Assembly (NCBI GenBank): GCA_021822565.1
Contig: JAKAQM010000001.1
Span: forward strand, 9,342 to 73,341
Direction of reading: 5' to 3'
Length of the DNA: 64,000 bases
Source: Actinomycetes bacterium
GTDB taxonomy: Bacteria > Actinomycetota > Acidimicrobiia > Acidimicrobiales > RAAP-2
Position 1 is the first letter of the stretch. Every line of letters begins with the position of its first letter. Positions 9,372 through 56,270 of this stretch are shown one piece after another. The translations under genes and the position numbers were made by a program. The notes beneath the pieces were generated by a model. That model saw nothing but the letters and a program-made list of their open reading frames with translations. It did no database searches and was not told the origin of the DNA.

Positions 9372-9775
9372 CGTCGGACCGCCGGACGGTGGCGGCGAGC
9401 CTCTCGGCGCAGCATCTGGGCCATCGCCTGGGCGGCGTCGAGTTGCTCGCGCAGCGCCTCGCAGCGCTGCTCGGCGGTCACCGCGAAGAGCTCCAAGCGC
9501 TCGACCAGCTCCGAGTGCTCTTGGCCGCCAGCTTCCGCAGCCAGCCGCTCGCGAAGCTCCAGCAGCTCACGCATCTCCTCGAGCGAGAAGTCGAGCGGCT
9601 TCATCTGCTTCACGAGCCGCAGCCGGTCCACGTCGTCATCGGTGTAGAGGCGGAAACCCCCGGCGCTGCGCCCCGAGGGGGGTACCAACCCCACCTCCTC
9701 GTAGTGACGGATGGTCCGCAACGACAAGGAGACCGCTTCAGCCACTTCCCCGATCTGGTGCATGTCTTCGATCAC
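9368..9775 (-). CDS. MerR family transcriptional regulator
   Basis: HTH IGEVAEAVSLSLRTIRHYEEVGLV followed by a coiled-coil. Stop overlaps the prfC ATG (ATGA 9368-9371). Start is GTG 9775 or ATG 9763. Confidence 0.8.
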   Translation of the reverse strand: MIEDMHQIGEVAEAVSLSLRTIRHYEEVGLVPPSGRSAGGFRLYTDDDVDRLRLVKQMKPLDFSLEEMRELLELRERLAAEAGGQEHSELVERLELFAVTAEQRCEALREQLDAAQAMAQMLRREARRHRPAVRR

Positions 9776-32405: not shown

Positions 32406-32589
32406 CGGCTGCTTCCCTTCCTCGGTTCCTGGACGTCCGTGACGAGTTGCCGGGGTGGCCCCGGGTCCGTACGGCTACTGAGATCCGCGTGCACTCTCGC
32501 ATGCCGACGCCAGTCGGACAAGCGCACGATCCCCGTCCTTCGCAAGCGCCTGTGACGCTTCGTATGCTTGCAAGTAGGGTGAGCGATCA

Positions 32590-33978
32590 ATGCCATTGGA
32601 GAGCTCCATGATCAACGGATCGATCTCGTTCTGGTACCAAGAGACCGGCATTCCTCCGCTCCGACCGCCATTGCGCGAGACGCTGGACGCCGACGTGTGC
32701 ATCGTCGGAGGCGGGTTCACCGGGCTGTGGACGGCGTACTACCTCGCCTCAGCTCGGCCGGACCTGCGAATCGTGGTGCTGGAGAAGCGTTTCGCCGGCT
32801 TCGGCGCTTCCGGGCGCAACGGTGGATGGGTCACCGGTTCCGTTCCTGGACTGCGGAGCCGATACGCAGCTGACCGAGGCAGGGACGCAGTGGTCGCCAT
32901 GCAGCGGGCCATGAACCAGACCGTCGACGAGGTGATCTCGGTGTCCGGCGCCGAGGGCATCGATGCGGACGTCGCCAAGGGCGGCGTCTTGCACGTGGCT
33001 CGCAGCCCTGCCCAGCTCAGGCGTCTCCGTGACCAGCTGGCCGTGGAGGCGCAGTGGGGCAACACGGACGTCGTCGAGCTCTCGGCCGAAGAGGTCGCCG
33101 CCCGGATCCGGGTGGACGAGGCGCTCGGGGGGAGCTACAGCCCGCACTGTGCCACCGTCCAACCCGCGAAGCTCGCGCAGGGGCTCGCCCGCGCGGTCGA
33201 GGGCAAGGGCGTCACCGTCTACGAGGACACCCCGGTGCTCGAGCTACGGCCACACCGCGCCGTCACCCCTCGCGCCGACGTGAGGGCCCGCTGGGTCCTC
33301 CGAGCCACCGAGGGCTTCACGGCGAGCCTCGCAGGGCTCCGACGCCTGTGGCTGCCGATGAACTCGTCGATCATCGCCACCGAGCCGCTCTCCGAGGCGG
33401 AGTGGGCCCAGATCGGATGGGAGGGTCGAGAAGCGCTCGGCGACATGGCGCACGCCTACATGTACGTGCAGCGCACTGCGGGCGGCCGCATCGCCTTGGG
33501 TGGGCGCGGCGTCCCGTACCGGTACGGTTCCCGCACCGACGCCGACGGCAGCACCCCGCAGCGCACCGTCGGGTCCCTGCGCGAGATCCTCGCGGCGATG
33601 TTCCCCTCCCTCAGGGGGGCGCGTATCGACCACACCTGGTCGGGGGTCCTCGGAGTGCCACGTGACTGGTGCGCGACCGTTGGTCTCGATCGCGTCACCG
33701 GTCTTGGATGGGCCGGCGGCTACGTTGGCACCGGGGTTGCTGCGACGAACCTGGCGGGCCGCACGCTGCGGGACCTGGTCTTGGGGGAGGACAGCGAGCT
33801 CGTGCGCCTCCCGTGGGTCGACCGCCAGGTCCGCCGGTGGGAGCCCGAGCCGCTCCGCTGGCTCGGCGTGCATGCCATGTACGCGGCGTACCGGTACGCG
33901 GATGCCCGCGAGTCCCGCACCGCCGGCCCCACCTCCGGCGTGGCCACCGTCGCCGACCTGGTCTCAGGCCGGCGCTGA
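32590..33978 (+). CDS. FAD-dependent oxidoreductase (DAO family, gamma-glutamylputrescine-oxidase-like)
   Basis: DVCIVGGGFTGLWTAYYL dinucleotide fold and GASGRNGG. Paralogous to 39621..41093. Confidence 0.8.
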   Translation: MPLESSMINGSISFWYQETGIPPLRPPLRETLDADVCIVGGGFTGLWTAYYLASARPDLRIVVLEKRFAGFGASGRNGGWVTGSVPGLRSRYAADRGRDAVVAMQRAMNQTVDEVISVSGAEGIDADVAKGGVLHVARSPAQLRRLRDQLAVEAQWGNTDVVELSAEEVAARIRVDEALGGSYSPHCATVQPAKLAQGLARAVEGKGVTVYEDTPVLELRPHRAVTPRADVRARWVLRATEGFTASLAGLRRLWLPMNSSIIATEPLSEAEWAQIGWEGREALGDMAHAYMYVQRTAGGRIALGGRGVPYRYGSRTDADGSTPQRTVGSLREILAAMFPSLRGARIDHTWSGVLGVPRDWCATVGLDRVTGLGWAGGYVGTGVAATNLAGRTLRDLVLGEDSELVRLPWVDRQVRRWEPEPLRWLGVHAMYAAYRYADARESRTAGPTSGVATVADLVSGRR

Positions 33979-37644: not shown

Positions 37645-38586
37645 GTGATCGGCTACATCATCCGGCGTCTGGGGCAGGCGATCATCGTCATGCTCCTCGT
37701 GAGCATGCTGATCTTCCTCATGCTCCATGCCCTGCCAGGCGGCCTGGTTCGTTCCCAGCTCGGTCCGAAGGCCAGCCGCTTCGCCGTCCATCAGCTCACC
37801 GTCGAGGAGGGCCTGACAAAGCCCCTTCCCGTGCAGTACGGGATCTGGCTGTCCCACGTCGTCCGCGGCAACCTGGGCTTCTCCTACAAGCAGAACACCC
37901 CTGTCGCCACGCTTCTCGGAGAGTACATCCCCCGCGACCTGATCCTGGGCGGCGCAGCCCTGCTCGTCGCCATCCTGGTGGCGATCCCGATCGGGATGGT
38001 CCAAGGGTCGCGGCGCAACTCGGCGGCCGACTACAGCTTCTCCGGGGTGCTCCTCGCCTTCTACTCCATGCCGTACTTCCTGATCGGCGTCATCGCCATC
38101 GTCGTGCTGAACATCTGGCTCGGCGTGCTGCCCTCCACGGCGGCGACATTCGGCCAGAACATCGGGACGGACGTGAAGGTGCTGGTCCTGCCGGTGATCT
38201 CCCTCGCACTGGCCAACATCGCCTACTTCAGCCGGTACCTTCGCAGCGCGGTGATCGACAACCTCCAGGAGGACTACGTGCGCACGGCGCGGGCGAAGGG
38301 GGCTCCGCGGGTGAGGATCCTCCTGCGGCACGTGCTGCGCAACTCGCTGCTCCCGTTCATCTCGGCGGTTGGCATCAGCCTGCCGCTGCTCGTGAGCGGG
38401 GCCCTCGTGATCGAAGTCCTGTTCGACTACCCTGGCATGGGCCTGCTCTTCTGGGACGCGCAGCAGCACCGGACATATCCGGTCCTCCTCGGCATCATCC
38501 TCGTCGTCAGCGCCGCGGTGGTGATCGGCAACCTCCTGGCTGACCTCGCGTACGCGGCCCTCGACCCGAGGATCCGCTATGAGTGA
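37645..38586 (+). CDS. ABC transporter permease (DppB-like)
   Basis: IGYIIRRLGQAIIVMLLVS and DYVRTARAKGAPRVRILLRHVLRN. GTG start. Confidence 0.85.
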   Translation: MIGYIIRRLGQAIIVMLLVSMLIFLMLHALPGGLVRSQLGPKASRFAVHQLTVEEGLTKPLPVQYGIWLSHVVRGNLGFSYKQNTPVATLLGEYIPRDLILGGAALLVAILVAIPIGMVQGSRRNSAADYSFSGVLLAFYSMPYFLIGVIAIVVLNIWLGVLPSTAATFGQNIGTDVKVLVLPVISLALANIAYFSRYLRSAVIDNLQEDYVRTARAKGAPRVRILLRHVLRNSLLPFISAVGISLPLLVSGALVIEVLFDYPGMGLLFWDAQQHRTYPVLLGIILVVSAAVVIGNLLADLAYAALDPRIRYE

Positions 38587-39577
38587 CGACACGAAGATCG
38601 ACGGCCCTGAGGCGATCCCGGCGCAGCTGGCGTCGTCGGCACCTGTCGAGGTGCCCGATCTCGAGGTCGGAGCTCCCGCCCGAGCCATCGAGGCTCCTCA
38701 CGGAGGCGAGAGCGGGACACCGCGCTGGACGCGGTTGCTCGAGAGCCTGCGCACCTTCACCGGGAACCGGCTCGCTCTCGTCGGCGCCATCTTCCTCGTG
38801 GCGGTCATCCTCTTCAGCTTCGTCGGGCCGCTCATCTACAAGACCAACCAGAGCGCCTCGACACTCCTGAACGCCAACCTCCCTCCGTCGAGCCAGTACC
38901 CGCTGGGCACCGGGCCGGAGGGCTACGACATGCTCGGGCGCCTCATGTTCGGAGGTCAGAGCACGCTCGAGGTCGGCCTCATCGTCGCGTTGATCGCGAC
39001 GGCGTTCGGGACCCTCTGGGGCTCCCTCGCCGGCTACTTGGGCGGCGTCATCGACGCGATCATGATGCGCATCGTCGACATGACCCTGTCGATCCCGTTC
39101 CTCTTCTTCGCGGTCCTGATCGCGACGCTGCTGACGCCCTCGCTCCCCCTCATCATCGTCGCGATCACCGCGGTGAGCTGGCCAGGGACGGCCAGGATCG
39201 TCCGAAGCGAAACCTTGTCGATCAAGACGCGCGACTACGTCACCGCTGCGTCGGGGTTCGGCAGCTGGCATCTGCGCCTCGTCGGGAGGCACATCCTGCC
39301 CAATTCGATCGGAGCGATCGTGGTGACAGCGACCCTGAAGGTCGCCACAGCGATCCTTCTGTTCGCGACGCTCGCCTTCCTCGGCCTCTCAGTGCCTCCA
39401 CCCGCGACGAGCTGGGGCGAGACACTCACGCTCGGCATCCACCACCTCTTCGACAGCTACTGGTGGGAGCTGTGGCTGCCCGCCGCGCTCATCACCCTCA
39501 CGGTCATCGCGGTGAGCGCGATCGGCGACGGCTTCTACGACGTCATCTCGAAGCGCCAGTCGGTCTCGTCGAAGTGA
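38579..39577 (+). CDS. ABC transporter permease (DppC-like)
   Basis: PLGTGPEGYDMLGRLM and YVTAASGFGSWHLRLVGRHILPN. 8-nt overlap with the previous gene. No ATPase gene follows. Confidence 0.85.
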   Translation: MSDDTKIDGPEAIPAQLASSAPVEVPDLEVGAPARAIEAPHGGESGTPRWTRLLESLRTFTGNRLALVGAIFLVAVILFSFVGPLIYKTNQSASTLLNANLPPSSQYPLGTGPEGYDMLGRLMFGGQSTLEVGLIVALIATAFGTLWGSLAGYLGGVIDAIMMRIVDMTLSIPFLFFAVLIATLLTPSLPLIIVAITAVSWPGTARIVRSETLSIKTRDYVTAASGFGSWHLRLVGRHILPNSIGAIVVTATLKVATAILLFATLAFLGLSVPPPATSWGETLTLGIHHLFDSYWWELWLPAALITLTVIAVSAIGDGFYDVISKRQSVSSK

Positions 39578-39620: not shown

Positions 39621-41093
39621 TCAGGAGGGGGGCATGACCGGCGTGAGCACCCGGGTGCGCCGCGCGGGGCGGTCCGAGCGGTCTTCGTAGCGATCCGCTG
39701 ACGCGAGCACCGCGACGATTGCCTTCGAGGCCAGGTAGCGCAGGGGCTCCGGCTCCCAGGACCGGGCGCGATGCCCGACCCAGGGCAGCCTTACGAGATC
39801 CGTGTCGCGACCGAGCACGAGGTCGGCCAGGGTCCGCCCCGAGATGTTCGCTGCGACGACGCCGTGGCCCGAGTAGCCGCCGGCCCATCCGAGACCCGTC
39901 ACGCGATCGTAGGTGACCGCCATGGACCAGTCCCGTGGCACCGCCAGCGGTCCTCCCCAGTGGTGGGTGATCGCGGCGCCCGATGCCGCGGGGAACTGAC
40001 GGCGGACCGTCTCTTCGAGACGCGCCCGGACCCCGGCGTCGCGTTCGGACGTCTCGCCGATCGGTTCGGAAAGCCGGTAGGGCGCCCCTCGGCCGCCGAT
40101 CGCGATGCGCCCGTCGACCGTGCGCTGGGCGTAGAAGAACAGGTGATGGCGGTCTCGGATCAACAGCCCGTCGTGCCATCCGATCTCTTCCCACACGCTG
40201 GCCGGCAATGGCTCGGTCGCGATCATCAGGCTGTAGAGGGGGAGGTAGCGCAATCGCTCGCCTGGCAGCTGCGTCGTATAGGACTCGGTCGCCCTGATGA
40301 CGTGGTCGGCGGCCACGACCCCTCCGCGGCAGCGGACCTCACCGCGTGCGATGCTGAGGGCTTCGGTGCGCTCGTAGATGGTCACACCGAGGCGCTCGCA
40401 GGCATCTGCCAGCCCTCGCGCCAGGCGTGCGGGGTCGACGCGGGCGCCGTGCGGAGAGAAGATGGCCAGTCGGCAGTCGGGCAGGTGCACGAGGTCGTCG
40501 ACGTCGGATCGCTCCAGCTGGCGCAGGTCCTCGGCGCCGATCCCGTGGATGCGCGCGATCTCGAGATCGGAGCGAAGGCGCGCGGCCTGAGGGTCGTTCG
40601 TCGCGATGGACAGCATCCCCGACTTCACGAAGCCGCAGTCGATGGACTCCTGTTCGACGACGTGGCCGATCTCGTCGACCGTCTGGTACGTGGTCCGCTC
40701 CGCGCGCACGACGGCGTCACGACCGGCGCGAGCCGCATAGACGTCCCAGCTCCCGGCGATCTTGGAGGAGACCCATCCACCGTTGCGCCCAGAGGGCCCG
40801 AAGCCCGCGATCTCCCGCTCCACGACCACGACCCTGGCGTCGGGCTGGAGACGCTTCAGGTAGTACGCGGTCCACAGCCCGGTGAAGCCCGCACCGACGA
40901 CCGCCACATCACAGGTGACGTCTCGGGAAAGGGCCGGCCGCGGACGCACGGGCTCGGGGACCATTTCCAGCCACAGGCTGCGGGCTCGGTAGCGTCGTTC
41001 GAGCTGTTCTGCGGGATCTGTGCCGGTGGCCATGAGCATCTGCTGAGAGGCGCCGGCACGGCCCGCCGGCGAACCGTCCGTTCTCGCCGTCAC
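39621..41093 (-). CDS. FAD-dependent oxidoreductase (DAO family), paralog of 32590..33978
   Basis: DVAVVGAGFTGLWTAYYL and GPSGRNGG. The C-terminal block VTGLGWAGGY..LVRLPWV..WEPEPLR is shared with the paralog. Start uncertain (GTG 41093, ATG 41039 or ATG 41033). Confidence 0.8.
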   Translation of the reverse strand: MTARTDGSPAGRAGASQQMLMATGTDPAEQLERRYRARSLWLEMVPEPVRPRPALSRDVTCDVAVVGAGFTGLWTAYYLKRLQPDARVVVVEREIAGFGPSGRNGGWVSSKIAGSWDVYAARAGRDAVVRAERTTYQTVDEIGHVVEQESIDCGFVKSGMLSIATNDPQAARLRSDLEIARIHGIGAEDLRQLERSDVDDLVHLPDCRLAIFSPHGARVDPARLARGLADACERLGVTIYERTEALSIARGEVRCRGGVVAADHVIRATESYTTQLPGERLRYLPLYSLMIATEPLPASVWEEIGWHDGLLIRDRHHLFFYAQRTVDGRIAIGGRGAPYRLSEPIGETSERDAGVRARLEETVRRQFPAASGAAITHHWGGPLAVPRDWSMAVTYDRVTGLGWAGGYSGHGVVAANISGRTLADLVLGRDTDLVRLPWVGHRARSWEPEPLRYLASKAIVAVLASADRYEDRSDRPARRTRVLTPVMPPS

Positions 41094-41165
41094 GCCGCTG
41101 CAACCCCCGAGCGACCAGCATGGTACTCGACGTGAGCGGTCCCCGGCGACCGCCGGCGGGTGCGT

Positions 41166-41429
41166 TCACGTCGGGCTCTGCCCGGGAAGCGTCGCGGACA
41201 CGAGGAACGAGACGCAGTCGTCGATCGTGAGCAGCCGCGGATAGTCGCGTTCGGGGATCTCGATCCCGGTGCGTTCGTGGAGACGGTCGACGAAGGCGAG
41301 AAAATCGAGCGAGTCGAGGCCGAGCGACTCCTGCAGGGTCGCGTCCGAGCTGACGTTGTCCAAGTCCGCGTCGGGTGCCACCTCGTGGAGCAGCGCCCGC
41401 ACGATCTGCCGTGCCTCCTCGCCGGTCAT
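41166..41429 (-). CDS. free-standing acyl/peptidyl carrier protein (phosphopantetheine attachment site)
   Basis: 87 aa with LQESLGLDSLDFLAFVDRL (DSL serine motif). ATG overlaps the stop of the upstream ORF (ATGA 41426-41429). Confidence 0.8.
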   Translation of the reverse strand: MTGEEARQIVRALLHEVAPDADLDNVSSDATLQESLGLDSLDFLAFVDRLHERTGIEIPERDYPRLLTIDDCVSFLVSATLPGQSPT

Positions 41430-43195
41430 CGCTCGGCGGTCCGTGGCGCAGGGCCTCGCGCAGCGTCCGTCTCGAGCGAACGGCGGTCGACCTGTCGGAG
41501 GATCGCCTCGGCCTCGGCCTCCGTGGCGCCGCGGGTGAGGCGCTCGGCTCGGACACTGGGGTCCGGGTCTCCGGGAGCGAGCTCGGCGAAGAGCGGCACG
41601 GACGCGTGGAGTCTCCGGTGCGCCTCGAGGAGCAGCCTCCCCGGCTCCCCCGGGACGGCATCGACGATGACGTCGGCCCCGCTCGCCAACGGGCACGGCG
41701 TGCCACCGAGCTCCGGGCACCCGGCCCATCCGCCCAACGGCGAGGGGCATCCCAGCACCTCTGCACCGGACCGGCGAAGAGCGTCGGACACCTCCCAGCT
41801 TCCCGAAGGCACCTCGACCAGCACCCGGAGCGCTGCGCGCGCCGGAGGCCAGGAAGGCACCCGTCCGACGGTGCCCACCGCCATGAGGATGGACACGGGG
41901 TGGTCGGCCATGTCGATGACGGCATACCCCCGGCGGCGCAGCATCGCGAGCATCGGCGCATTGGCCGCGAGCACGTCGGCTTCCAGGTTCGGGAACCAGT
42001 GGGCAGCGGCATCCTCGGCCAGCACGTCGAGCAGGTAAGGACCGAGCCACCCCCGCGCACCCCGAGTGACCGTGATCCCAAGCTCGGCATTGCCGTTCGT
42101 GAGCGGGGTGTACGTCGCCTCTGCCACCATCGTCTCCGCGGGGCCCGGGCGCTCCTCCTCGCTCGAGGGGGTGCACGAGCGTGAGGCGACCGTCGCCACC
42201 AGCCCCCCGCCGCCTCGGTGTGCGACGTCGGCCATCTGCATGATGAAGGGGTCCGCGGGCGGGCGAGTGCTGAAGAACCTCCGGTAGACGTCGTCCTCGT
42301 CGAGGCTCGCGTAGAGGGCGGCCAGCCGGGGGCCGTCGTCGGCGCGCATCGTGCGCACGGTCATCGTGCGACCGCCTGGTAGCGCGAGCTGTTGGAAGAC
42401 CCCGCCTGGCTTTGCCGATCGGGCCAGCACGACGCAGCCCCGCCCGCCCGGACATCCCCCGGTCCTCGGATGGGCCAGCGCGATCCGCACGAGCGCGGCT
42501 TCGAGGTCACGTAGATCGACGCCGGACAGTGCGGCGACCACTCCGAGCTGCTCGAGCGGGTCCTCCTGCGAGAGCAGCCCGAGGTGCTGCCCAGCCTGCA
42601 TCGCGCGCCGGTCGACGCTCGGACGTGCCCCCGGCCACACGCCTCGCAGCTCTCGAAGGAACAGCGAGACCGTGACGGGCCCCCATCCTGTGAGCTCGTC
42701 GAGGGCGGCCGCCAGGTCGTCGGGCTCCAGGAACCTCCTGCCGATCTCGCCCACCTCCCCGCCGTAACGCTCGGCGACTCGGCGGGCGAGGGCCTGAAGG
42801 CGGCTGGCAGTCCGGCCGTCGTAGCGTGCGTAGCCGGCCGAATCGAGCAGCGCGACGATCTCGCCCCACTCGTGTGCCTCCGCGTCGGTGATCCTGCGGA
42901 TCCCAGAGGCCTCGAGGACGGCGAACGCCCGCTCGGCCACCGCAGCAGCGATGCGCGTCCCGAAGAGCGTCGATGCGACGAACCAGCGCTCGACTTCTGG
43001 GTCTCCGGCGTCGACGTCGATGCCCATCTCCGACGAGTAGCGCCCCCCGGTCGTTTCGACGAGCACGCCTGCCAAGGTCGGCGCCACTGGGAGCCCGCTC
43101 GCCATCGGGGCGAGACCCCGTGCCTGCTCCTCGGACCCTCCCGGCCTCGCGGCCTCCGCTGCGCGCGGGATGCCGGTGCGGGCCTTTCGTGTCAT
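41426..43195 (-). CDS. 589-aa ORF: N-terminal HhH (EndoIII/HhH-GPD-like) domain + Pat-type GNAT acetyltransferase domain + ~150-aa Cys-containing C-terminal domain
   Basis: HhH-like LDELTGWGPVTVSLFLRELRG. GNAT block RTMRADDGPRLAALYASLDEDDVYRRFFS..LGITVTRGARGWLGPYLL resembles Pat-family GNAT domains. No stop codon between the two modules. Internal ATG at 42364. ATG 43195 overlaps the acs stop (ATGA). Confidence 0.65.
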   Translation of the reverse strand: MTRKARTGIPRAAEAARPGGSEEQARGLAPMASGLPVAPTLAGVLVETTGGRYSSEMGIDVDAGDPEVERWFVASTLFGTRIAAAVAERAFAVLEASGIRRITDAEAHEWGEIVALLDSAGYARYDGRTASRLQALARRVAERYGGEVGEIGRRFLEPDDLAAALDELTGWGPVTVSLFLRELRGVWPGARPSVDRRAMQAGQHLGLLSQEDPLEQLGVVAALSGVDLRDLEAALVRIALAHPRTGGCPGGRGCVVLARSAKPGGVFQQLALPGGRTMTVRTMRADDGPRLAALYASLDEDDVYRRFFSTRPPADPFIMQMADVAHRGGGGLVATVASRSCTPSSEEERPGPAETMVAEATYTPLTNGNAELGITVTRGARGWLGPYLLDVLAEDAAAHWFPNLEADVLAANAPMLAMLRRRGYAVIDMADHPVSILMAVGTVGRVPSWPPARAALRVLVEVPSGSWEVSDALRRSGAEVLGCPSPLGGWAGCPELGGTPCPLASGADVIVDAVPGEPGRLLLEAHRRLHASVPLFAELAPGDPDPSVRAERLTRGATEAEAEAILRQVDRRSLETDAARGPAPRTAER

Positions 43196-44949
43196 GGCCC
43201 GTCCTCGGTCGTCGACATGTCGCCTCGAGGACGGCCGAGCTCGCGCGACCTGAGCAGGCGCCGCATGACCTTGCCGCTCGAGGTATGGGGGAGATGCTGG
43301 TCGAAGGCGATCTCGCGTGGGGCCATGGTCGCGCCGAGCCGCTTGCGAGCGAAGCCCAGCAGGTCGAGCCGGAGGTCGTCTCCGGCTTCGTAGCCGGGCC
43401 TGACGGAGACGAACGCCTTCACGATCTCTCCTGCCACTGGGTCGGGGACCCCGATCACCCCAGCCTCGGCCACTCCGGGGTGCTCCATCAGCACCGACTC
43501 CACTTCGAACGGGCCGATGAGGTGACCTGCGGACTCGATGACGTCGTCGGACCTGCCGACGAACCAGAAGTAGCCTTCCGCGTCGCGCCGTGCCAGGTCG
43601 CCGGTCAGGTACCAGCCCCCGGAGAAGCAGGCTTGGTAGCGCTCGTCGCCGCCGAGATAGCCGCGGAACATCGACGGCCAGCTCGGCCGAATCGCGAGCT
43701 CGCCGTCGAGCCCCGCCTCCGCTTCTACGGCGGTGCCGTCGGGGTCGAGGAGGACGTGACCCTGGTCGTCGCGGGCGAGCACGGTGGCGTCGACACCAGG
43801 GTGCGGGCGCCCCATCGAGCCGGGGCGGATGTCCATGCACGCGTAGTTGGCGACCATGATCGCGCCGGTTTCGGTCTGCCACCAGGTGTCGTGCGCGGGG
43901 ACGCCCAGCGCGTCGCTCGACCACACGACGACGTCGGGACCGAGCGGCTCTCCGACGGTGGCGACGAAGCGCAGTCGGCTCAGGTCGTGGTCTCGAGCCA
44001 TCTCGGACCCCGCCGCCATGAGCATGCGGAGCGCGGTGGGCGACGTGTACCAGACGGTGACACCTTCGGACTCAAGCACGCCGTACCAGCGTTCGGCGTC
44101 GAACCCTCCTTCGTGGACGACGGAGGTCACGCCGTGGGCGAGTGGGGCGACGATCCCGTAGCTCGTGCCCGTGACCCAGCCCGGGTCCGCCGTGCACCAG
44201 TACACGTCATCGGGGTGCAGGTCGAGGGCGATCCGGCCGGTGGCGTGGTGGGAGACGATCGCATCGTGCACGTGGAGCGCGCCCTTGGGGGGTCCGGTGG
44301 TGCCACTCGTGAAGTGGAGGAGCGCGAGGTCCTCCGGGTCGGTGTGCCCGATCACGTAGCTGTCGGGCGCCGCCTCGAGCAGGAGCGCCATGTCGAGCGT
44401 CCCCGGGATCTCCGTCGCCGTCTCCCGGCGAGGCGCTGACGCCGGTGTCGAGGTCGTCGCGAGCAGCACGTGGCGGAGCTCGGGGAGCAACGTGCGGATC
44501 GGTGCCACACGATGGCGATAGAGGTCCGGGGTCGTGACGAGCACCCGTGCGCCGCCGAGCGCCAGGCGCTCGCGAATGGGCTCCGGGCCGAACGCCTCGA
44601 ACAGCGGGGACACCACGCAACGGTGCTTGAGCGCGCCGATCACGGACACGTACAGCCACCACGTGCGGGGCATGAGGACGAACACCCGGTCGGAGCGGGT
44701 GACGCCGAGGCGGTCGAGCGCGTTGGCGAACTGACTGGAGCGTCGTGCGAGCTCCCCGTAGGTGAGGTCCGTGCGCGCACCGTGGCGAGGAAGGCAGCGC
44801 AGCGCCACGTGCGAACGGTGCCCACCCGCTGCGTGGCGATCCACCATCTCGTGCGCGATGTTCAGCCCCCGACCATTGGGGAGCCCGTCGAGAGATCTGC
44901 GAGCTTCGTCCCAGCTGAACCGTGCGCGCTCGGTCGCGTAGTCGGTCAT
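43192..44949 (-). CDS. AMP-forming acyl-CoA/acetyl-CoA synthetase (AcsA-like adenylate-forming enzyme)
   Basis: LHFTSGTTGPPKG (A3), YWCTADPGWVTG, WQTETG, YLTGDLARRDAEGYFWFVGRSDD (A8), and the A10 lysine in TSSGKVMRR. Confidence 0.85.
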   Translation of the reverse strand: MTDYATERARFSWDEARRSLDGLPNGRGLNIAHEMVDRHAAGGHRSHVALRCLPRHGARTDLTYGELARRSSQFANALDRLGVTRSDRVFVLMPRTWWLYVSVIGALKHRCVVSPLFEAFGPEPIRERLALGGARVLVTTPDLYRHRVAPIRTLLPELRHVLLATTSTPASAPRRETATEIPGTLDMALLLEAAPDSYVIGHTDPEDLALLHFTSGTTGPPKGALHVHDAIVSHHATGRIALDLHPDDVYWCTADPGWVTGTSYGIVAPLAHGVTSVVHEGGFDAERWYGVLESEGVTVWYTSPTALRMLMAAGSEMARDHDLSRLRFVATVGEPLGPDVVVWSSDALGVPAHDTWWQTETGAIMVANYACMDIRPGSMGRPHPGVDATVLARDDQGHVLLDPDGTAVEAEAGLDGELAIRPSWPSMFRGYLGGDERYQACFSGGWYLTGDLARRDAEGYFWFVGRSDDVIESAGHLIGPFEVESVLMEHPGVAEAGVIGVPDPVAGEIVKAFVSVRPGYEAGDDLRLDLLGFARKRLGATMAPREIAFDQHLPHTSSGKVMRRLLRSRELGRPRGDMSTTEDGP

Positions 44950-45260
44950 GTTGGGCACGCAAGCGTTGTCCCAGCGGAGCTTTCGGATCGTCGCAAACCG
45001 CGCCACCCCGGCCCCTGTTCTCTCCGGGCGCCGCGAAGGCGCCCTTGCATCCGGTCCGCACACTCCCCGCCAGCTTGTGCCGAGGACGAGTGGATATCCA
45101 GGGCCCAACGTCCCGTCCAGCCCACGGGGCGCTGCACGGCGACCCGGCGACGAGCCGGCTGGGCGGCCATGGGGACGAGGGCCGCTTGACCGCTTGGCCG
45201 CGGCCGTGAACGGGCACTTGGCCTCTACTGCCCCTGGGTCGACGCGCGCAATCTCGGAAC

Positions 45261-45722
45261 GTGGGCACGTCGAACCGAGCCGAGAAGGCCGCGTCGGCTG
45301 GCGCGGCTCGCTCGGGGCACCGTCAGCTCCCCCACACCGCCGATCGGGTGCTGGAGGCGTGGGGCCCAGACCGCGCCACGTGCCTCTCGGAGGCGCTGCT
45401 CGCGCTCGTCGAGATCTTCGCCGAGGTGCCGGACCAGGCGACCGCCGACGTGCTGGCGCTCGGGGCCCCCGCAGGTGGTGCGCAGGACGTGCTCGTGTCG
45501 CTGCTCGAAGAGGTGATCTACGTGGTCGACGCGCTCGGCGTCGTGCCGGTCCGCTTTCACCTTGCCGAGGCGGAGGACGGCAGCCTCGCGGGGGACATGG
45601 AGGTGGTGCCCACGAGCGACGTCGAGCTCGTGGGACCGGTGCCCAAGGGGGTCTCGTACCACGCCTTGGAGATCGCTCCGTCGGACGGAGGATGGCGATG
45701 CCGCGTGCTCGTGGACGTGTGA
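45261..45722 (+). CDS. archease
   Basis: LPHTADRVLEAWGP N-terminal motif and C-terminal KGVSYHALEI. GTG is the only in-frame start. Confidence 0.8.
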   Translation: MGTSNRAEKAASAGAARSGHRQLPHTADRVLEAWGPDRATCLSEALLALVEIFAEVPDQATADVLALGAPAGGAQDVLVSLLEEVIYVVDALGVVPVRFHLAEAEDGSLAGDMEVVPTSDVELVGPVPKGVSYHALEIAPSDGGWRCRVLVDV

Positions 45723-47422: not shown

Positions 47423-48943
47423 GTGCTCGACGTCGCCTCCCCCCCCCGATGGGTGAAGGTCCTCGACCAGACCCGGTGCATCGGGTGCCATGCCTGCACC
47501 ACGGCGTGCAAGTCCGAGAACGAGGTGCCGATCGGGGTCACGCGCACCTACGTGAAGTCGGTGGACGTCGGTACGTTCCCCAACGCCCGCCGCGCCTTCC
47601 AGGTCACTCGGTGCAACCAGTGCGAGGATCCGCCCTGCGTCGAGGCCTGCCCGACGGGGGCCATGTACCGCCGGCCCGACGGCATCGTCGACTTCGACAA
47701 GCGGGTCTGCATCGGGTGCAAGGCCTGCATGGCCGCGTGCCCCTACGACGCCATCTTCATCAATCCCGACGACCACTCGGCTGAGAAGTGCAACTTCTGC
47801 GCCCATAGGCTGGACCTGGGCCTCGAGCCCGCCTGCGTGGTGGTCTGCCCTGTGGAGGCCATCTCCGTCGGGGACCTCTCCGACCCGACGTCCAAGGTCG
47901 CCAAGCTCGTGCAGCGGTCGCCGGTGGCCGTGCGCCGGCCGGAGAAGGAGACCCGTCCGGGGGTCTTCTACCGGGGTGCGGACGGTGCCACGCTGGATCC
48001 GCTGGCTGCTGCCCGACCGACGGGAGGGATCTACGCCTGGGCCGGGCAAGGACCGCCAGGAGCACGTCGCGTCGCAGCCGGTGACCCGCGCGGGCACAAT
48101 TCTTCGGCCGCTGCGATCATCTCCTACGACGTGCCCCACAAGGCCCCCTGGGACTGGCGGGTGAGCCTCTACACCTGGACCAAGGGCATCTCCGCCGGCG
48201 CCTACCTCGCACCCCTCGTTCTCGTGCTGGCCGGTCGGCTGGCGTGGTCGAGCGCCCTGTTCCGCTGGGCGGGGCCGGCGGTCGCGCTGGCCATGCTGGC
48301 GACCACCGGTGCGATCCTCGTGTGGGACCTCGAGCACCCGACGCGGGTGTGGATGCTCTTCGCCCGCCCGCAGTGGCGCAGCTGGCTCGTGCGCGGCGGG
48401 GTGATCATCTCCGCGTACGGGGCTGCCCTTGTCGCCGCGTTGGGCGCCTCGGCGTCGGGGTCGGTCGGGGCAGAGCAGGTGGTGGCGGGCTTCTGCCTCC
48501 CCCTGGCCGCCCTTGCCGCCGGGTACACCGCCTACCTGTTCGCCCAGGCCCGCGGGCGGGACCTCTGGCAGAGCCAGTTGCTCGCGCCGCACCTGCTGGC
48601 GCAGTCGCTCATGGTGGGCGCGGCCGCGCTCTACCTCGTGGGCACCTCGATCGGGACGACGGGTGTCGGGCTCGCCGACCTGCTCGCAGCGACGGCAGCG
48701 CTCCATCTCTTCATGGTGGCGGGTGAGGCCATGCCCAGACACCCGACCGCCCACACCCATATGGCTGTCGCGGAGATGGTGCACGGGCGCTTCGCGGCGT
48801 ACTTCTGGGTCGGGCTCGCGCTCTCGGCCGTCGCAGTCTTCTCCCCGTGGATCGGACCCGTCGGAGCCGTGGCGGCGCTGGTCGGGATCGCAGCCCACAA
48901 GCACGCCTACGTCCAGGCCGGACAGGCGGTGCCGCTCGCATGA
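47423..48943 (+). CDS. fusion of a 4x[4Fe-4S] ferredoxin subunit (PsrB/NrfC/DmsB-like) with an NrfD/PsrC-like integral membrane quinol-interacting subunit
   Basis: Four Cys clusters (CIGCHACTTAC, CNQCEDPPCVEACP, CIGCKACMAACP, CNFCAHR..CVVVCP), then about 270 aa of multi-TM sequence. No N-terminal signal peptide visible. Confidence 0.8.
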   Translation: MLDVASPPRWVKVLDQTRCIGCHACTTACKSENEVPIGVTRTYVKSVDVGTFPNARRAFQVTRCNQCEDPPCVEACPTGAMYRRPDGIVDFDKRVCIGCKACMAACPYDAIFINPDDHSAEKCNFCAHRLDLGLEPACVVVCPVEAISVGDLSDPTSKVAKLVQRSPVAVRRPEKETRPGVFYRGADGATLDPLAAARPTGGIYAWAGQGPPGARRVAAGDPRGHNSSAAAIISYDVPHKAPWDWRVSLYTWTKGISAGAYLAPLVLVLAGRLAWSSALFRWAGPAVALAMLATTGAILVWDLEHPTRVWMLFARPQWRSWLVRGGVIISAYGAALVAALGASASGSVGAEQVVAGFCLPLAALAAGYTAYLFAQARGRDLWQSQLLAPHLLAQSLMVGAAALYLVGTSIGTTGVGLADLLAATAALHLFMVAGEAMPRHPTAHTHMAVAEMVHGRFAAYFWVGLALSAVAVFSPWIGPVGAVAALVGIAAHKHAYVQAGQAVPLA

Positions 48944-51900
48944 GCGCCCCGATGCGCGCCGCCCGCTTCGTGCGCTGGGCCCAACGTGACGGCGGGAACC
49001 GCCAGGCTGATCTCGACCGCATGGAGGCCGCGCTCCGAACTGCCCGCACTGCTGGCGCGGCCGGCGAGGGCTCTGGCGGTGGGGCCCACTACGCAGGCCC
49101 GAGCGGTGGCCACCTCGCCGCCTTCCCGCCGCCGGAGCGATGGGACGACTGGGTGGAGCTGGACTCGCGGTCGTGGCCCGAGCGGTCCGAGCGCCACTAC
49201 CTCCTCGTCCCCACCACGTGCTTCAACTGCGAGTCGGCGTGCGGGCTGCTCGCCTACGTCGACCGGGACACGCTCACCATCCGCAAGCTCGAGGGCAATC
49301 CCGAGCACCCCGGCTCGCGCGGGCGCAACTGCGCCAAGGGACCCGCGACGATCAACCAGGTGACCGACCCCGACCGGGTGCTGTACCCGCTCCGGCGGGT
49401 CGGCGCCAGGGGCGGGGGTGGATGGGAGCGGGTGTCGTGGGACGAGGTGCTCGACGACCTCGCGGGACGGATCCGCCGGGCGATCGAAGAGGATCGCCGC
49501 AACGAGATCATGGTCCACATCGGGCGGCCCGGAGAGGACGGCTTCACCGAGCGGGTGCTGGCCAGCTGGGGGGTCGACGGTCACAACTCGCACACGAACA
49601 TCTGCTCGAGCGGAGGGCGCACCGGCTACCAGTTCTGGATGGGGATCGACCGCCCGAGCCCCGACCACGCCAACGCGAAGGTGATCTACCTCATCAGCTC
49701 GCACCTGGAGACGGGCCACTACTTCAACCCCCACGCCCAACGGATCATCGAAGCGCGGGCGAAGGGGGCGAAGGTGATCGTGGTCGACACCCGGCTCTCC
49801 AACACGGCCACCCACGCCGACTACTGGCTCGCCCCGCAGCCGGGAAGCGAGGCAGCCATCAACCTCGCCATCTGCCGCCACCTGCTCATGACCGGGGCCT
49901 ACGACGCCGACTTCGTCCGCCGGTGGTGGAACTGGGAGGAGTACCTGACGGCCTGCCGTCCGGAGCTGCCGGTGACGTTCGAGGCCTTCGAGCAGGCGTT
50001 GCGCGAAGAGTACGCGGGGTTCACCTTCGAGCTCGCGGCGCAGGAATCGGGGATCGACGCGGCCACGCTCAGGGAGGTGGCAGACGTCGTGGCTGCGGCG
50101 GGGCATCGGTTCTCCGCGCACAACTGGCGGTCCGCGGCTGCCGGCAACCTCGGCGGCTGGCAGGTCAGCCGGACGATCTTCATGATCTCCGCCCTCCTCG
50201 GTGCGGTGGCCTGCGAAGGCGGCACGTTCCCCAACGCCTGGAACAAGTTCGTGCCCCGGCCGATCCACGTGCCCCCGCACCCCGACGTCTGGAACGAGCT
50301 GACCTGGCCGGTCGAGTACCCGCTCGCCCAGAACGAGCTGTCCTTCCTCCTGCCCCAGTTCCTGAAAGACGGGCGCGGGACGCTCGACGTGTACTTCACG
50401 CGTGTCTACAACCCGGTGTGGACCAATCCCGATGGGATGTCCTGGGTCGAGGTGCTGACCGACGAGTCGCTCGTGGGCTGCCACGTGGCGCTGACGCCGA
50501 CGTGGAACGAGACCGCCTACTTCGCCGACTACATCCTGCCGGTGGGGCTCTCCCCGGAGCGCCACGACACCCATTCCTACGAGCAGTACGACGGCCAGTG
50601 GATCGGCTTCCGACAGCCGGTCCTGCGCGAGGCCCGGCGCCGGCTGGGCCAGCCGCTCGACGACACCCGCGACGCCAACCCTGGGGAGGTGTGGGAGGAG
50701 AACGAGCTGTGGATCGAGCTGTCGTGGCGCATCGACCCAGACGGCGCCCTCGGGATCCGCCAGTACTACGAGTCGAAGGCCCGCCCCGGCACGAAGCTGA
50801 GCGTCGAGGAGTACTACGGCTGGATGTTCACCCACTCGGTGCCCGGGCTGCCCGATGCCGCCGCCGCAGAGGGGCTGGCGCCGCTCGACTACATGCGCCG
50901 GCACGGCGCGTTCGAGATCGCCCGCGATGTCGGGGCGCGTCACGAGGAGGCGGTGCCCGACGAGGAGCTCGTCGACGTCGCGGTCGAAGGCTTCGGACGC
51001 GTCTTCTCCGCAGCGCCGGTGCAGCCTCCGACCAACATGGCGCCGACGGCCGCGCCGCCGCCGGACCCGGATGGCAGGCGGCCGGTCGGGGTCGTCGTCG
51101 ACGGCGAGACGGTCGTGCGCCGCGGCTTCCCGACGCCCTCGGGACGCCTCGAGTTCTATTCGTCGACGCTCGCCCGATGGGGTTGGCCCGAGCACGCGTT
51201 GCCCGGCTACATCCGCAGCCACGTCCACCCGTCCGTGCTCGAGCCGGACGAGCTGGTGCTCATCTCGACCTTCCGGCTTCCCACCCACATCCACACCCGG
51301 TCCGCCAACGCCAAGTGGCTCGACGAGCTGGCCCACACCAATCCTCTCTGGGTCCACCCCGCCGATGCCGCTCGGCTCGGCGCCGGGGACCCGGGTGACG
51401 GACCTGCCGCGGACCGTCGGCCGCTCATGACCGGCGACCTCGTGCGGGTCGAGACCGCGATCGGCCATTTCGTCGCCAAGGCGTGGGTCACCGAGGGCAT
51501 CCGGCCCGGGATCGTGGCCTGCAGCCACCACATGGGCCGTTGGAAGCCCGAGGGCCAGGGCGGCGGCCAGGGTCAAGTCATGTCGTCGGTCTCGTTGCAC
51601 CACGAGGGGGAGAGCTGGTCGATGCATGTCCAGCGCGGTCCTCACCCGTACGCGTCGGCGGACCCGGACACGGCCAGGATGTGGTGGACCGAGATCGGCG
51701 TCCACCAGAACCTGACGTTTCCCGTCCATCCGGACCCCATCTCGGGCATGCACTGCTGGCACCAGGCGGTCAGGGTGCGCCGGGCCCAGCCCGGCGACGC
51801 CGTCGGCGACGTCGTCGTCGACACCGCCAAGGCGCGTGCCGTCTACGTCGAGTGGCTGGCGATGACCCGGAGCGCCGCGGAGGTCTCCCCCGACGACACC

Positions 51901-51975
51901 CGCCGTCCCAGCTGGCTCATGCGCCCGCTCAAGCCCTCCGCCTCGGCGTTCACGCTCGCCGTGCCGGTCCCTTGA
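48940..51975 (+). CDS. molybdopterin (bis-MGD) oxidoreductase catalytic subunit, Psr/Phs/Ttr/Arr-like; substrate unknown
   Basis: N-terminal FS0 motif CFNCESACGLLAY..GRNCAKG, then HTNICSSGGRTG and large MGD-binding domains. ATGA overlap at 48940-48943. About 95-aa N-terminal extension without an RRxFLK twin-arginine motif. Confidence 0.85.
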   Translation: MSAPMRAARFVRWAQRDGGNRQADLDRMEAALRTARTAGAAGEGSGGGAHYAGPSGGHLAAFPPPERWDDWVELDSRSWPERSERHYLLVPTTCFNCESACGLLAYVDRDTLTIRKLEGNPEHPGSRGRNCAKGPATINQVTDPDRVLYPLRRVGARGGGGWERVSWDEVLDDLAGRIRRAIEEDRRNEIMVHIGRPGEDGFTERVLASWGVDGHNSHTNICSSGGRTGYQFWMGIDRPSPDHANAKVIYLISSHLETGHYFNPHAQRIIEARAKGAKVIVVDTRLSNTATHADYWLAPQPGSEAAINLAICRHLLMTGAYDADFVRRWWNWEEYLTACRPELPVTFEAFEQALREEYAGFTFELAAQESGIDAATLREVADVVAAAGHRFSAHNWRSAAAGNLGGWQVSRTIFMISALLGAVACEGGTFPNAWNKFVPRPIHVPPHPDVWNELTWPVEYPLAQNELSFLLPQFLKDGRGTLDVYFTRVYNPVWTNPDGMSWVEVLTDESLVGCHVALTPTWNETAYFADYILPVGLSPERHDTHSYEQYDGQWIGFRQPVLREARRRLGQPLDDTRDANPGEVWEENELWIELSWRIDPDGALGIRQYYESKARPGTKLSVEEYYGWMFTHSVPGLPDAAAAEGLAPLDYMRRHGAFEIARDVGARHEEAVPDEELVDVAVEGFGRVFSAAPVQPPTNMAPTAAPPPDPDGRRPVGVVVDGETVVRRGFPTPSGRLEFYSSTLARWGWPEHALPGYIRSHVHPSVLEPDELVLISTFRLPTHIHTRSANAKWLDELAHTNPLWVHPADAARLGAGDPGDGPAADRRPLMTGDLVRVETAIGHFVAKAWVTEGIRPGIVACSHHMGRWKPEGQGGGQGQVMSSVSLHHEGESWSMHVQRGPHPYASADPDTARMWWTEIGVHQNLTFPVHPDPISGMHCWHQAVRVRRAQPGDAVGDVVVDTAKARAVYVEWLAMTRSAAEVSPDDTRRPSWLMRPLKPSASAFTLAVPVP

Positions 51976-51988
51976 TCGGCAGCGCCGG

Positions 51989-52888
51989 TTGATCGGCAAC
52001 GGTCCGTTGGTCGGCACCGTCACCGTCACTCGTCCTGAGCTGGCCCGGACCCTCGCCGCCTCCGTCAGGTCCCCGCTGGACGTCGAAGCCTGCCGACTCC
52101 TCGGGTTGCCGGCACCGCCCGGCGTGGCCGTGCACACCGGGGTCTTCGTGCTCGAGACCCACCCGTATGCCTCTGTCCACCTCGGCGCCGAGGGCATGAT
52201 CGGCGGGGACGCCGGCGACAGGGTCGCCGGGTTCTGGCGAGCGCTGGGGATGGTGCCGCCGCCCGAAGCCGACCATCTCGGGACGCTCCTCGATCTCTAC
52301 GCTCGGCTGGGGGACGAGGAGCTCGCCCTCTCGCGCGCCGATCGACGGCGGGCAGCGGTCGCGAGCGCCCGAGGCGCGCTGCTCTGGGAGCACCTCGCTC
52401 CCTGGGTGCCGGTGTACCTCGCCACCGTGGACCGGGTGGGGGACGGCTTCCATGCCGCATGGGCCAGCCTCGCGGCCGGCGTCGTCTCGGCGGAGGCCGA
52501 CGCGCTGGCACCGCGCGCGGAGCTCCCGACCGCGCTCGTGGTCGCGCCGCCCCCGCTCACCGTGGCCTCCCGCCGCGAGCTGGTCGACGCGGTGCTCGCC
52601 CCGGTGCGCAGCGGTGTGGTGGTCACGCAGGCTGACCTCAGCCGGGCCGGGCGGGACCTCGGGCTGGGGGTGCGGCGAGGTGAACGTCGTTTCGCGCTCG
52701 AGGGGCTGCTCGACCAGGATCCCGCCGCCGTGCTCGCCTGGCTGGCTGCGCTGGCCGCGGAATGGTCTGACCTCCATCGCCACTGGCACTGCGGCGCACT
52801 GGAGCCCGTGGGGCGTTGGTGGGCGGCGCGGGCGCGTGCGTCCGCGGCGGCCCTTGGCGCCGCTGCGCACGCTCCTGTCTCTGGGTGA
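51989..52888 (+). CDS. TorD/DmsD/NarJ-family redox-enzyme maturation chaperone-like protein
   Basis: PYASVHLGAEGMIGGDAGDRVAGFWRALGMVPPPEADHLGTLLDLYARL resembles the core of the TorD family. TTG start is uncertain. Confidence 0.6.
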   Translation: MIGNGPLVGTVTVTRPELARTLAASVRSPLDVEACRLLGLPAPPGVAVHTGVFVLETHPYASVHLGAEGMIGGDAGDRVAGFWRALGMVPPPEADHLGTLLDLYARLGDEELALSRADRRRAAVASARGALLWEHLAPWVPVYLATVDRVGDGFHAAWASLAAGVVSAEADALAPRAELPTALVVAPPPLTVASRRELVDAVLAPVRSGVVVTQADLSRAGRDLGLGVRRGERRFALEGLLDQDPAAVLAWLAALAAEWSDLHRHWHCGALEPVGRWWAARARASAAALGAAAHAPVSG

Positions 52889-53006
52889 TCCCGATCCGAG
52901 TCCCTGCCGTTAACGTGAGGGAGAGCTCGGCCGATCGAGCTCGAGCCGCTGCCGGGTAGCTGCCCCGGCCGACCGCGTGACGGCGGCACGGGGAGGACGG
53001 TGAAGG

Positions 53007-56218: not shown

Positions 56219-56270
56219 GGGAGCTGGCGGTCGCGGGCTCCGGTCCCGCAGGGGCTTTCCAGGCGCTCGG

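Follow-up and report, generated by a model that had tools for sequence, protein, structure and literature searches.

An operon of an Acidimicrobiales bacterium with acetate-CoA ligase, Pat-like acetyltransferase and carrier protein genes, probably cut down from a module for acetyl units that Acidimicrobiia conserve

We analysed a 64-kb stretch of DNA (hereafter the window; G+C content ~70%) from an Acidimicrobiales contig, JAKAQM010000001.1, in which successive minus-strand genes encode an AMP-forming acetate-CoA ligase of the Bacillus AcsA type, a 589-aa protein annotated as a "hypothetical protein" (MDA8074962.1) with a domain resembling Pat-type GNAT acetyltransferases, an 87-aa acyl carrier protein (ACP) and a DAO-family FAD oxidoreductase. 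By gene content and gene order, this operon appears to be a trimmed, lineage-specific form of a module for acetyl units that is conserved in Acidimicrobiia and that comprises, when complete, a Pat-type GNAT gene adjoining an operon in the order AcsA, pyruvate dehydrogenase (PDH) E1alpha, E1beta, E2 and ACP. We consider it somewhat better than even (a probability of roughly 0.55) that the system is an Acs/Pat switch in which the domains flanking the GNAT serve as sensor or targeting modules and the ACP exchanges acetyl groups with the GNAT. In such a switch, the ligase would activate acetate and the GNAT would acetylate Lys560 of the ligase and switch it off, a product feedback as in Acs/Pat and AcsA/AcuA. 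The sensor or targeting modules would be an HhH-GPD-like N-terminal domain and a Cys3 receiver-like C-terminal domain. The ACP would hold an acetyl group on its phosphopantetheine arm and meet the GNAT through this arm, as acetyl donor or acceptor, and in relatives it would also exchange acetyl with E2 or the ligase.

The model case of bacterial metabolic control by acetylation is the modification of a lysine in acetyl-CoA synthetase, and the Acs/Pat logic itself is already known. Our literature search found neither the acetyltransferase architecture described here nor the conserved coupling to PDH and a dedicated ACP, and a search for Acs-PDH-ACP operons or acetate-ACP ligases returned nothing relevant. 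The locus would represent an acetylation switch genetically tied to pyruvate dehydrogenase and a dedicated carrier protein across a whole order of uncultured Actinomycetota. Should the ACP indeed be an acetyl donor or acceptor, a protein-acetylation circuit would for the first time be tied to a carrier protein, and central carbon flux would have a new connection to acyl-carrier chemistry. Should it be neither, the gain in annotation remains, namely an ordinary Acs, a Pat-type 589-aa protein and an unrelated DAO.

Conservation of the module in related genomes

Using the GNAT as a query against one genome per species, we obtained 54 loci, onto which the proteins of the window and of a related locus (L002) were mapped. 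The loci lie in metagenome-assembled genomes (MAGs) labelled Acidimicrobiia or Actinomycetes/Actinomycetota, except for one labelled Acidobacteriota. For the synteny counts we used the 33 loci where the GNAT gene has 7 kb or more of flanking sequence on each side. An orthologous ligase was present at 28 of them, E1alpha at 27, E1beta at 30, E2 at 28, ACP at 28, and DAO at none (0/33). The typical order is GNAT and then AcsA-E1alpha-E1beta-E2-ACP, and divergent, convergent, co-directional and GNAT-last variants were also seen. Because ligase, GNAT and ACP occur together in about 28 of the 33 loci and in several gene orders, their linkage is beyond chance. An earlier note on this DNA, made from the sequence alone, had put forward all four genes as one system to be checked by co-occurrence and synteny; the association held for these three genes and failed for the DAO.

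The E1 subunits of the relatives score above the cut-offs of PDH models (E1alpha, 442 bits against 394; E1beta, 415 against 321), and the E2 is PDH-like, with a lipoyl lysine and a DHRxxDG motif. Neither E1 nor E2 was found in the 64-kb window. At L002 the order is ligase-E1alpha-E1beta-E2-ACP1-fusion gene-ACP2, where the fusion gene corresponds to that of the 589-aa protein. Since the window shows the same order minus E1alpha through ACP1, it would hold a deletion derivative consisting of ligase, GNAT and ACP. This origin from a larger module speaks against the "minimal stand-alone" pathway that the earlier note had envisaged. In the relatives, a pyruvate dehydrogenase operon ends with the ACP, an order that may reflect transfer of acetyl from E2 to the carrier protein. 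The AcsA-PDH-ACP operon also occurs without an adjacent GNAT gene, in Solirubrobacteraceae and other contigs (Thermoleophilia-type loci L061, L063 and L064).

Examples of the AcsA-E1alpha-E1beta-E2-ACP operon lie at 11128-16626 in L013, 1225-6768 in L002, 2975-8261 in L061, 2672-8267 in L063 and 3005-8261 in L064. The operon, the GNAT gene or the N-domain gene is flanked at L061, L063, L064, L065, L006 and L001 by genes for universal stress proteins, HSP20, DUF2267 and a CBS-M50 peptidase, and also for baeRF, WS/DGAT (triacylglycerol synthase), a CtpF-like P-type ATPase, a phosphoribosyltransferase and NiFe hydrogenase. Taken together, these genes resemble the DosR dormancy regulon of mycobacteria.

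An archease-RtcB (RNA ligase) gene pair stands beside the GNAT gene at four loci (L001 5788-7709, L016 7336-9203, L024 5313-7180 and L025 532-2447); RtcB was not found in the 64-kb window, where the archease gene alone remains. Open reading frames (ORFs) near stand-alone N-domain and GNAT genes were noted at L016 (9283-9837, minus strand) and L022 (6112-6663, minus strand; 8128-9477, plus strand). Judged by eye, their N-termini look isochorismatase/nicotinamidase-like and nicotinate phosphoribosyltransferase-like; if this is correct, NAD salvage genes at these places would fit a sirtuin-linked acetylation theme.

The acetate-CoA ligase

The first gene appears to encode an ordinary AcsA-type acetate-activating ligase. 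The protein scores 828 bits against the NCBIfam equivalog model NF003313, "acetate--CoA ligase" (PRK04319; cut-off 729), and its L002 orthologue scores 889 bits. Both Pfam domains expected of such an enzyme, PF00501 (AMP-binding) and PF13193 (AMP-binding_C), are present, and the top PDB match is 9G79 (E=2.5e-160), the AcsA of Bacillus subtilis (PMC11910552). The ANL motifs TSGTTGPPKG, WWQTETG, GRSDDVI and SGK560 can each be aligned to this enzyme without a gap (residue numbers of the ligase count from the ATG at 44949, which gives 585 aa). LPHTSSGK560 is aligned with K549 of B. subtilis AcsA, the residue that is acetylated by AcuA (PMC11910552). The AcsA-like identity and the intact A10 lysine that had been read from the segment TSSGKVMRR are both upheld, the lysine being K560. 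The translation start is probably the GTG at 45006 rather than the ATG at 44949, because the 19 residues encoded upstream of the latter are homologous to the N-termini of orthologues; in a close relative (L003), the ligase was called at 603 aa.

The motif TWWQTETG (355-362) and the segment WCTADPGWVTGT are present in the window ligase and kept in all family ligases. We take the Trp of TWWQTETG and the Val-Thr of GWVTG to be acetate-pocket residues, corresponding to W414 and V310/T311 of Salmonella enterica Acs, and on these residues the acyl pocket is predicted to be acetate-sized. Arg535 is shared by every one of the family ligases that were aligned (7/7). Its position presumably corresponds to R584 of S. 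enterica Acs, a binder of the CoA 3'-phosphate, and Reger et al. are said to have described in 2007 the role of R584 in CoA binding. The conservation of Arg535 favours binding of CoA, which would be the thiol acceptor. The best-scoring models for the ligase are all acetate or short-chain CoA ligases. A FAAL/AasS-type loading enzyme, as the earlier note had suggested, was rejected on family scores and pocket motifs: the ligase keeps the acetate-pocket motifs and the CoA-phosphate-binding Arg, and no FAAL-like feature was seen.

A 13-residue insertion lies between ANL motifs A5 and A6, at about residues 395-410. It is common to the operon-linked ligases of the window, L001, L002, L052, L061, L063 and L064, is missing from B. 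subtilis and Chloroflexota AcsA, and is the sole family-specific feature of the ligase.

The 589-aa acetyltransferase-like protein

The 589-aa protein gave no Pfam match at E=0.01 nor at E=10, and its three domains were recovered from family profiles and a structure model. Its full-length homologues fell into 18 clusters. In a wider search covering 1.84 billion representatives, the N-domain and the "GNAT + C-domain" half formed separate families, the former with stand-alone proteins of ~240 aa and the latter of ~310 aa, which together comprise 353 representatives at E<=1e-30. An AlphaFold2 (AF2) model of the whole protein with a mean predicted local distance difference test score (pLDDT) of 72 was used for Foldseek.

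The profile of the GNAT and C-domain matched Sulfolobus solfataricus PAT (SsPAT; 1.7e-18), Streptomyces lividans PatA (SlPatA; 1.8e-16), Escherichia coli PatZ (7e-15), Mycobacterium tuberculosis Rv0998 (1e-14) and Mycobacterium smegmatis Pat (1.7e-14) in the PDB. The remaining GNATs were at 1e-6 or weaker, except 4j3g, a Brucella ribosomal-protein-alanine N-acetyltransferase, at 3e-13. The top Foldseek matches of the model were 4avb, 4u5y, 4nxy and 9it0 (Rv0998, the S. lividans PatA-Acs complex and PatZ). Profile and predicted fold alike point to a Pat-like domain in the Pat/PatZ/Rv0998 group of lysine acetyltransferases. The domain contains VAEATY (357-362) with an invariant Glu359. Its donor loop for the acetyl-CoA pyrophosphate is an invariant RGWLGP (381-386), which has a one-residue deletion relative to the canonical Q/RxxGxG/A; the equivalent loops are RTLGIG in SsPAT and QGRGVA in SlPatA. 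Some relatives of the 589-aa protein weakly reach PF13302 or PF00583. The classic substrate of Pat-group acetyltransferases is the PX4GK lysine of an ANL ligase, and a cognate ANL substrate is at hand in the neighbouring PX4GK ligase, whose adjacency is kept in 28 of the 33 loci. With this lysine, a Pat-group GNAT and conserved adjacency, the regulator-target pair that the earlier note had offered as one reading is the best-supported one for these two genes. Its remark that such a pair leaves the carrier protein unexplained is equally borne out, the ACP being conserved in 28/33 loci.

The N-domain is predicted to be all-helical. It gave matches to NCBIfam TIGR03252 (E=1e-4), by profile to PDB endonuclease III (E=2e-4), by Foldseek to 8a5g (E=4e-5), and in hhalign to E. 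coli Nth (probability 49%, E=1.7e-4), all of them weak; PF00730 did not match the window protein and reached 1e-3 on the homologue P0069. These signals are concordant and weakly suggest an HhH-GPD-like domain. The domain has an LTGWGP hairpin (168-173), a conserved Asp195 and CPGGxxC (248-254). The catalytic K120 of Nth is replaced by Val, and Asp195 is retained past the Gly/Pro loop. Only the two Cys of CPGGxxC stand against the Fe-S motif C-x6-C-x2-C-x5-C of endonuclease III. In the proposal of an HhH domain fused to a Pat-like GNAT, the GNAT part was therefore confirmed by profile and fold, and the HhH-GPD part received weak signals (E ~1e-4) and no Pfam support.

Members of the N-domain family also occur in other fusions, represented by P0031, P0032 and P0035 (L006 8001-9281), P0030 and P0063. 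They are joined to another GNAT, of PF13302 type, with the GNAT first, in proteins of about 430-460 aa that include one from Streptosporangiaceae, and further to DUF2267 and to an M54 archaemetzincin peptidase. From these arrangements, the N-domain would seem to behave as a promiscuous accessory domain that has repeatedly been joined to acetyltransferases.

Modelled alone, the C-domain reached a pLDDT of 88.5. Its Foldseek matches were weak and generic (B12-binding, CheY-receiver and flavodoxin proteins; E 1e-3 to 1e-2, TM-score about 0.55-0.6), and the assignment of a specific fold was dropped since only generic matches at E ~1e-3 or weaker were obtained. Cys483, Cys493, Cys501 and His526 are invariant, and we regard it as a putative metal- or redox-sensing domain. 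Sensor domains fused to Pat-type acetyltransferases are an established theme, with ACT, cAMP-binding and NADP+-binding domains as examples (PMC6456759). The published partners of Pat GNATs are these three and NDP-forming-ACS-like domains, and the combination of an HhH-GPD-like domain, a Pat GNAT and a Cys3 receiver-like domain is not among the published Pat classifications (PMC6456759; PMC6434083).

The carrier protein

The 87-aa protein matches PF00550 at 36.4 bits (cut-off 20.8), and the DSL phosphopantetheine site previously recognized in it is supported by this match, with Ser40 in LDSLDF as the predicted attachment site. The serine and an IPERDYP motif are kept in all 53 aligned family members (53/53), and IPERDYP would be a conserved partner surface. 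Scores against the AcpP models TIGR00517 and NF002148 were 34-37 bits, below the equivalog cut-offs of 66-71, so that this appears to be a dedicated ACP, distinct from that of fatty acid synthesis. The window ACP contains no lysine at all. It was accordingly ruled out as a substrate of lysine acetylation, and any interaction would have to proceed via the phosphopantetheine arm or the protein surface.

In a neighbour-joining tree, the window ACP falls inside a clade, ACP2, which is sister to the ACP1 of the same genomes. ACP2 appears to have arisen when the ACP gene that in relatives is coupled in translation to PDH E2 was duplicated. The window protein is 64-70% identical to ACP2 orthologues and intact although E2 has been lost. 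In three lineages ACP2 comes directly after the fusion gene, and the fusion proteins of these lineages share 56-64% identity with that of the window. At L001/L008 a GNAT-ACP pair has been relocated from the ligase-PDH operon, and L010/L012 represent a second deletion derivative that keeps GNAT and ACP only. In-frame ACP-GNAT fusions in both orders were also found (P0043, P0102 and P0111). From the retained duplicate and the fusions, the link between ACP and GNAT appears to be real. By gene order, the commonest partner of the ACP is E2, whose stop is overlapped by the ACP start in about 28 loci.

Comparison with known systems

In B. subtilis AcsA/AcuA and in the Acs/Pat systems of Salmonella, S. 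lividans and Mycobacterium (Rv0998), Acs is switched off by lysine acetylation. The window operon shares with them the ligase type, the PX4GK lysine and an adjoining GNAT gene that is nearest to the Pat group. Unlike in these systems, the GNAT of the window is flanked by an HhH-GPD-like N-domain and a Cys3 receiver-like C-domain, its donor P-loop is atypical, and the operon has no deacetylase gene; the dedicated, genetically coupled ACP likewise has no counterpart in the described Acs/Pat systems.

A second point of comparison is QncN/QncL/QncM and SclQ1-4, in which an E1/E2-like complex loads a C2 unit onto a dedicated ACP (PMC6335953). The relatives of the window operon resemble these systems: after the genes for a thiamine-dependent E1alpha/beta and a lipoyl-E2 comes that for a small ACP, which overlaps the E2 stop, and by analogy this order suggests delivery of a C2 unit to the ACP. 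In contrast to QncN/L/M, E1alpha and E1beta of the relatives pass curated pyruvate dehydrogenase models, no nonribosomal peptide synthetase (NRPS) or polyketide synthase (PKS) follows, Acs and a Pat-like GNAT are part of the module, and the window itself is without E1 and E2.

The mycobacterial mbt-2 cluster (FadD33/MbtM, the ACP MbtL, the GNAT MbtK and FadE14) comprises an acyl-AMP ligase that acts through an ACP and a GNAT in N-acyl transfer, together with a FAD enzyme, and FadD33 itself is regulated by Pat acetylation. These are the same four protein classes that the earlier note had listed for the window. However, the window ligase is of the acetate-CoA type and not a FAAL, the GNAT is Pat-like and not MbtK-like, and the FAD enzyme is a DAO-family protein, not an acyl-ACP dehydrogenase of the ACAD family, and is not conserved with the module. 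In the GNAT_L-ACP_L loading module of CurA-type PKSs, the ACP that comes to carry an acetyl group has a GNAT as its partner or fusion domain, and such pairing or fusion of GNAT and ACP is also seen in this family. The family differs from CurA in that the analysis detected nothing specifically similar to GNAT_L, both an adaptor domain and a ketosynthase further downstream are missing, and the genes are stand-alone ones in a context of primary metabolism. No PKS, NRPS or fatty acid synthase genes lie nearby, as had been stated before.

Weighing the explanations

A use of acyl-ACP by the GNAT is hinted at by the GNAT-adjacent ACP duplicate, the rare ACP-GNAT fusions and the atypical CoA-pyrophosphate loop, which are suggestive. 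Several observations weigh against the preferred switch with an ACP partner. The synteny may in part be inherited and not selected, because the GNAT loci come from one order except for one MAG, and adjacency of GNAT and ligase would be expected equally for two steps of one pathway. The 589-aa protein has no Pfam GNAT match and lies far below the curated cut-off of the NCBIfam Pat model NF058543 (16 bits against 460), and with the non-canonical RGWLGP loop the donor might not be acetyl-CoA. Each ACP-GNAT fusion is a singleton from a single short metagenomic contig, searching with P0111 yielded no fused homologues beyond the three singletons, and the fusions, to which we give modest weight, may be frameshift artefacts. 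Furthermore, the DAO gene is perhaps co-transcribed in the window lineage, where it is co-directional and begins 72 nt downstream.

It is unlikely, in our estimate, that ligase and GNAT are a plain Acs/Pat pair and that the ACP works with the PDH E2 or in an unlinked process, being a leftover of the deletion in the window and close to the GNAT by an accident of gene order. E2 is the commonest partner of the ACP, with overlapping genes in about 28 loci, the operon of Thermoleophilia-type contigs has no adjacent GNAT, and the ACP-GNAT fusions are rare singletons, all of which such an explanation would accommodate. It has to contend, however, with a duplicated ACP that is kept behind the GNAT fusion gene in three diverged lineages, including the relocated L001/L008 pair, with the intact, ATGA-coupled and well-conserved ACP of the window despite the loss of E2, and with the second deletion derivative, which also retained GNAT and ACP. 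We consider it quite improbable that the GNAT instead acts in the manner of the GNAT-ACP loading units of CurA-type PKSs, either as acetyl-CoA:holo-ACP S-acetyltransferase or as malonyl-ACP decarboxylase, with AcsA and PDH supplying acetyl-CoA and acetyl-ACP priming lipid synthesis, possibly in dormancy. The adjacency and fusions of GNAT and ACP, the atypical donor loop, the location of related operons among USP, HSP20, CBS and WS/DGAT genes and the general precedent of GNAT_L-ACP_L would agree with this function. On the other hand, the nearest relatives of the GNAT by profile and fold are lysine acetyltransferases, no PKS GNAT_L was among the top 50 fold matches or the profile matches, no ketosynthase or other ACP-using enzyme was seen in any locus, and a ligase with the PX4GK lysine is the textbook Pat substrate.

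The pathway proposed in the earlier note, an mbt-2-like stand-alone acyl transfer (as by FadD33/MbtL/MbtK/FadE14) in which the ACP receives an acyl or aminoacyl group from the ligase, the GNAT moves it to a small-molecule acceptor and the DAO oxidises the product, now appears very improbable. The four co-directional, tightly spaced genes, the A5-A6 insertion of the family ligases relative to B. subtilis AcsA and the conserved ACP linkage are in line with it. Yet the DAO is missing from all related loci outside the window lineage and has a paralogue in the adjacent catabolic island, the ligase is above the acetate-CoA ligase equivalog cut-off and keeps the pocket Trp and the CoA-binding Arg, the similarity of the GNAT is to protein acetyltransferases, with MbtK not among the fold or profile matches listed, and the FAD enzyme is of the amine-oxidase type and not an acyl-ACP dehydrogenase.

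The Acs/Pat switch with an acetyl-exchanging ACP could be carried further: the ACP would then be a second "acetyl currency" of Acidimicrobiia and Thermoleophilia, alongside CoA, a picture that we find unlikely as a whole. In it, acetyl from pyruvate would reach the phosphopantetheine arm of the ACP through the PDH E2, and acetyl from acetate through the AcsA-type ligase, and the Pat-like GNAT with its modified loop would read acetyl-ACP, not acetyl-CoA, and acetylate the ligase or other targets. Control would come from the Cys3 redox/metal-sensing domain, and the module would be deployed in dormancy- or hypoxia-type islands.

Gene boundaries, the DAO gene and the rest of the window

The four successive minus-strand genes are supported by a frame plot of third-position G+C together with the ORF table, and their layout as first described, with two ATGA overlaps and a 72-nt gap, was confirmed by direct reading as well (Table 1). 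The overlaps lie at 43195-43192 between the ligase gene and that of the 589-aa protein and at 41429-41426 between the latter and the ACP gene; 72 nt separate the ACP stop (41166-41168) from the GTG start of the DAO gene (41093). Scans for promoters, terminators and regulatory RNAs gave neither a sigma-70-like site nor a terminator or an Rfam match, an outcome that says little at 70% GC.

Table 1. Positions of the operon genes, predicted domains and sites, and neighbouring genes in the window
Feature	Position	Strand	Basis or remark
AMP-forming acetate-CoA ligase gene, Bacillus AcsA type	43192..45006 (from ATG: 43192-44949)	-	PF00501 + PF13193, NF003313
Codon of Lys560, A10 catalytic lysine, P554-HTSS-G-K560 (PX4GK)	43270..43272	-	Predicted acetylation site
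Gene of 589-aa three-domain protein, MDA8074962.1	41426..43195	-	Coupled to ligase upstream and ACP downstream
N-terminal all-helical domain, residues ~40-260	42416..43078	-	Distantly HhH-GPD / endonuclease III-like
Predicted Pat-type GNAT domain, residues ~265-440	41876..42403	-	Profile vs PDB, Foldseek
C-terminal receiver/flavodoxin-like domain, residues ~455-580	41456..41833	-	AF2 model, Foldseek
87-aa acyl carrier protein gene, ACP2 clade	41166..41429	-	PF00550, tree, alignment
Codon of Ser40, phosphopantetheine attachment site in LDSLDF	41310..41312	-	DSL serine, alignment
DAO-family FAD oxidoreductase gene, 490 aa	39621..41093	-	PF01266; outside conserved module
Intergenic region operon/archease, presumed promoter region	45007..45209	.	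Frame plot
Archease gene	45210-45722	+	Divergent from operon, upstream border
Opp-type permease gene	38579-39577	+	Convergent, downstream border
Fused 4Fe-4S ferredoxin/NrfD membrane protein gene	47423-48943	+	
Molybdopterin subunit gene, 1042 aa	48847-51975	+	
NarJ-like chaperone gene	51989-52888	+	
MFS transporter gene	53004-54404	+	

The DAO scores 195 bits against PF01266, and its best specific model, TIGR03329, gave 202 bits, below the cut-off of 633. It is carried only by the window's own lineage (L003-L005 and L007; 88-93% identical), and a paralogue of 47% identity is encoded at 32578-33978 in a peptide/amide catabolic island. Near related operons, the only further DAO (L061/L062) has 32% identity and is encoded 3 kb away on the opposite strand. 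Most plausibly, the DAO belongs with the adjoining genes for peptide/amide uptake and catabolism. The FAD oxidase was consequently rejected as a member of the system, in which it had originally been included, because it is present at none of the 33 loci.

The island and its surroundings (18845-39577) contain S58 and M20 peptidases, two aldehyde dehydrogenases, an amidase, an amidohydrolase and the DAO paralogue, as well as two sets of SBP_bac_5 and permease genes (Opp-type uptake systems). On the other side of the operon, a 713-aa ORF at 54143-56284 (minus strand) with a coding-like G+C bias gave no Pfam match at E<=1e-5. A molybdopterin oxidoreductase cluster occupies 47423-54404 on the plus strand, separated from the operon by genes for a LysR regulator and a methyltransferase.

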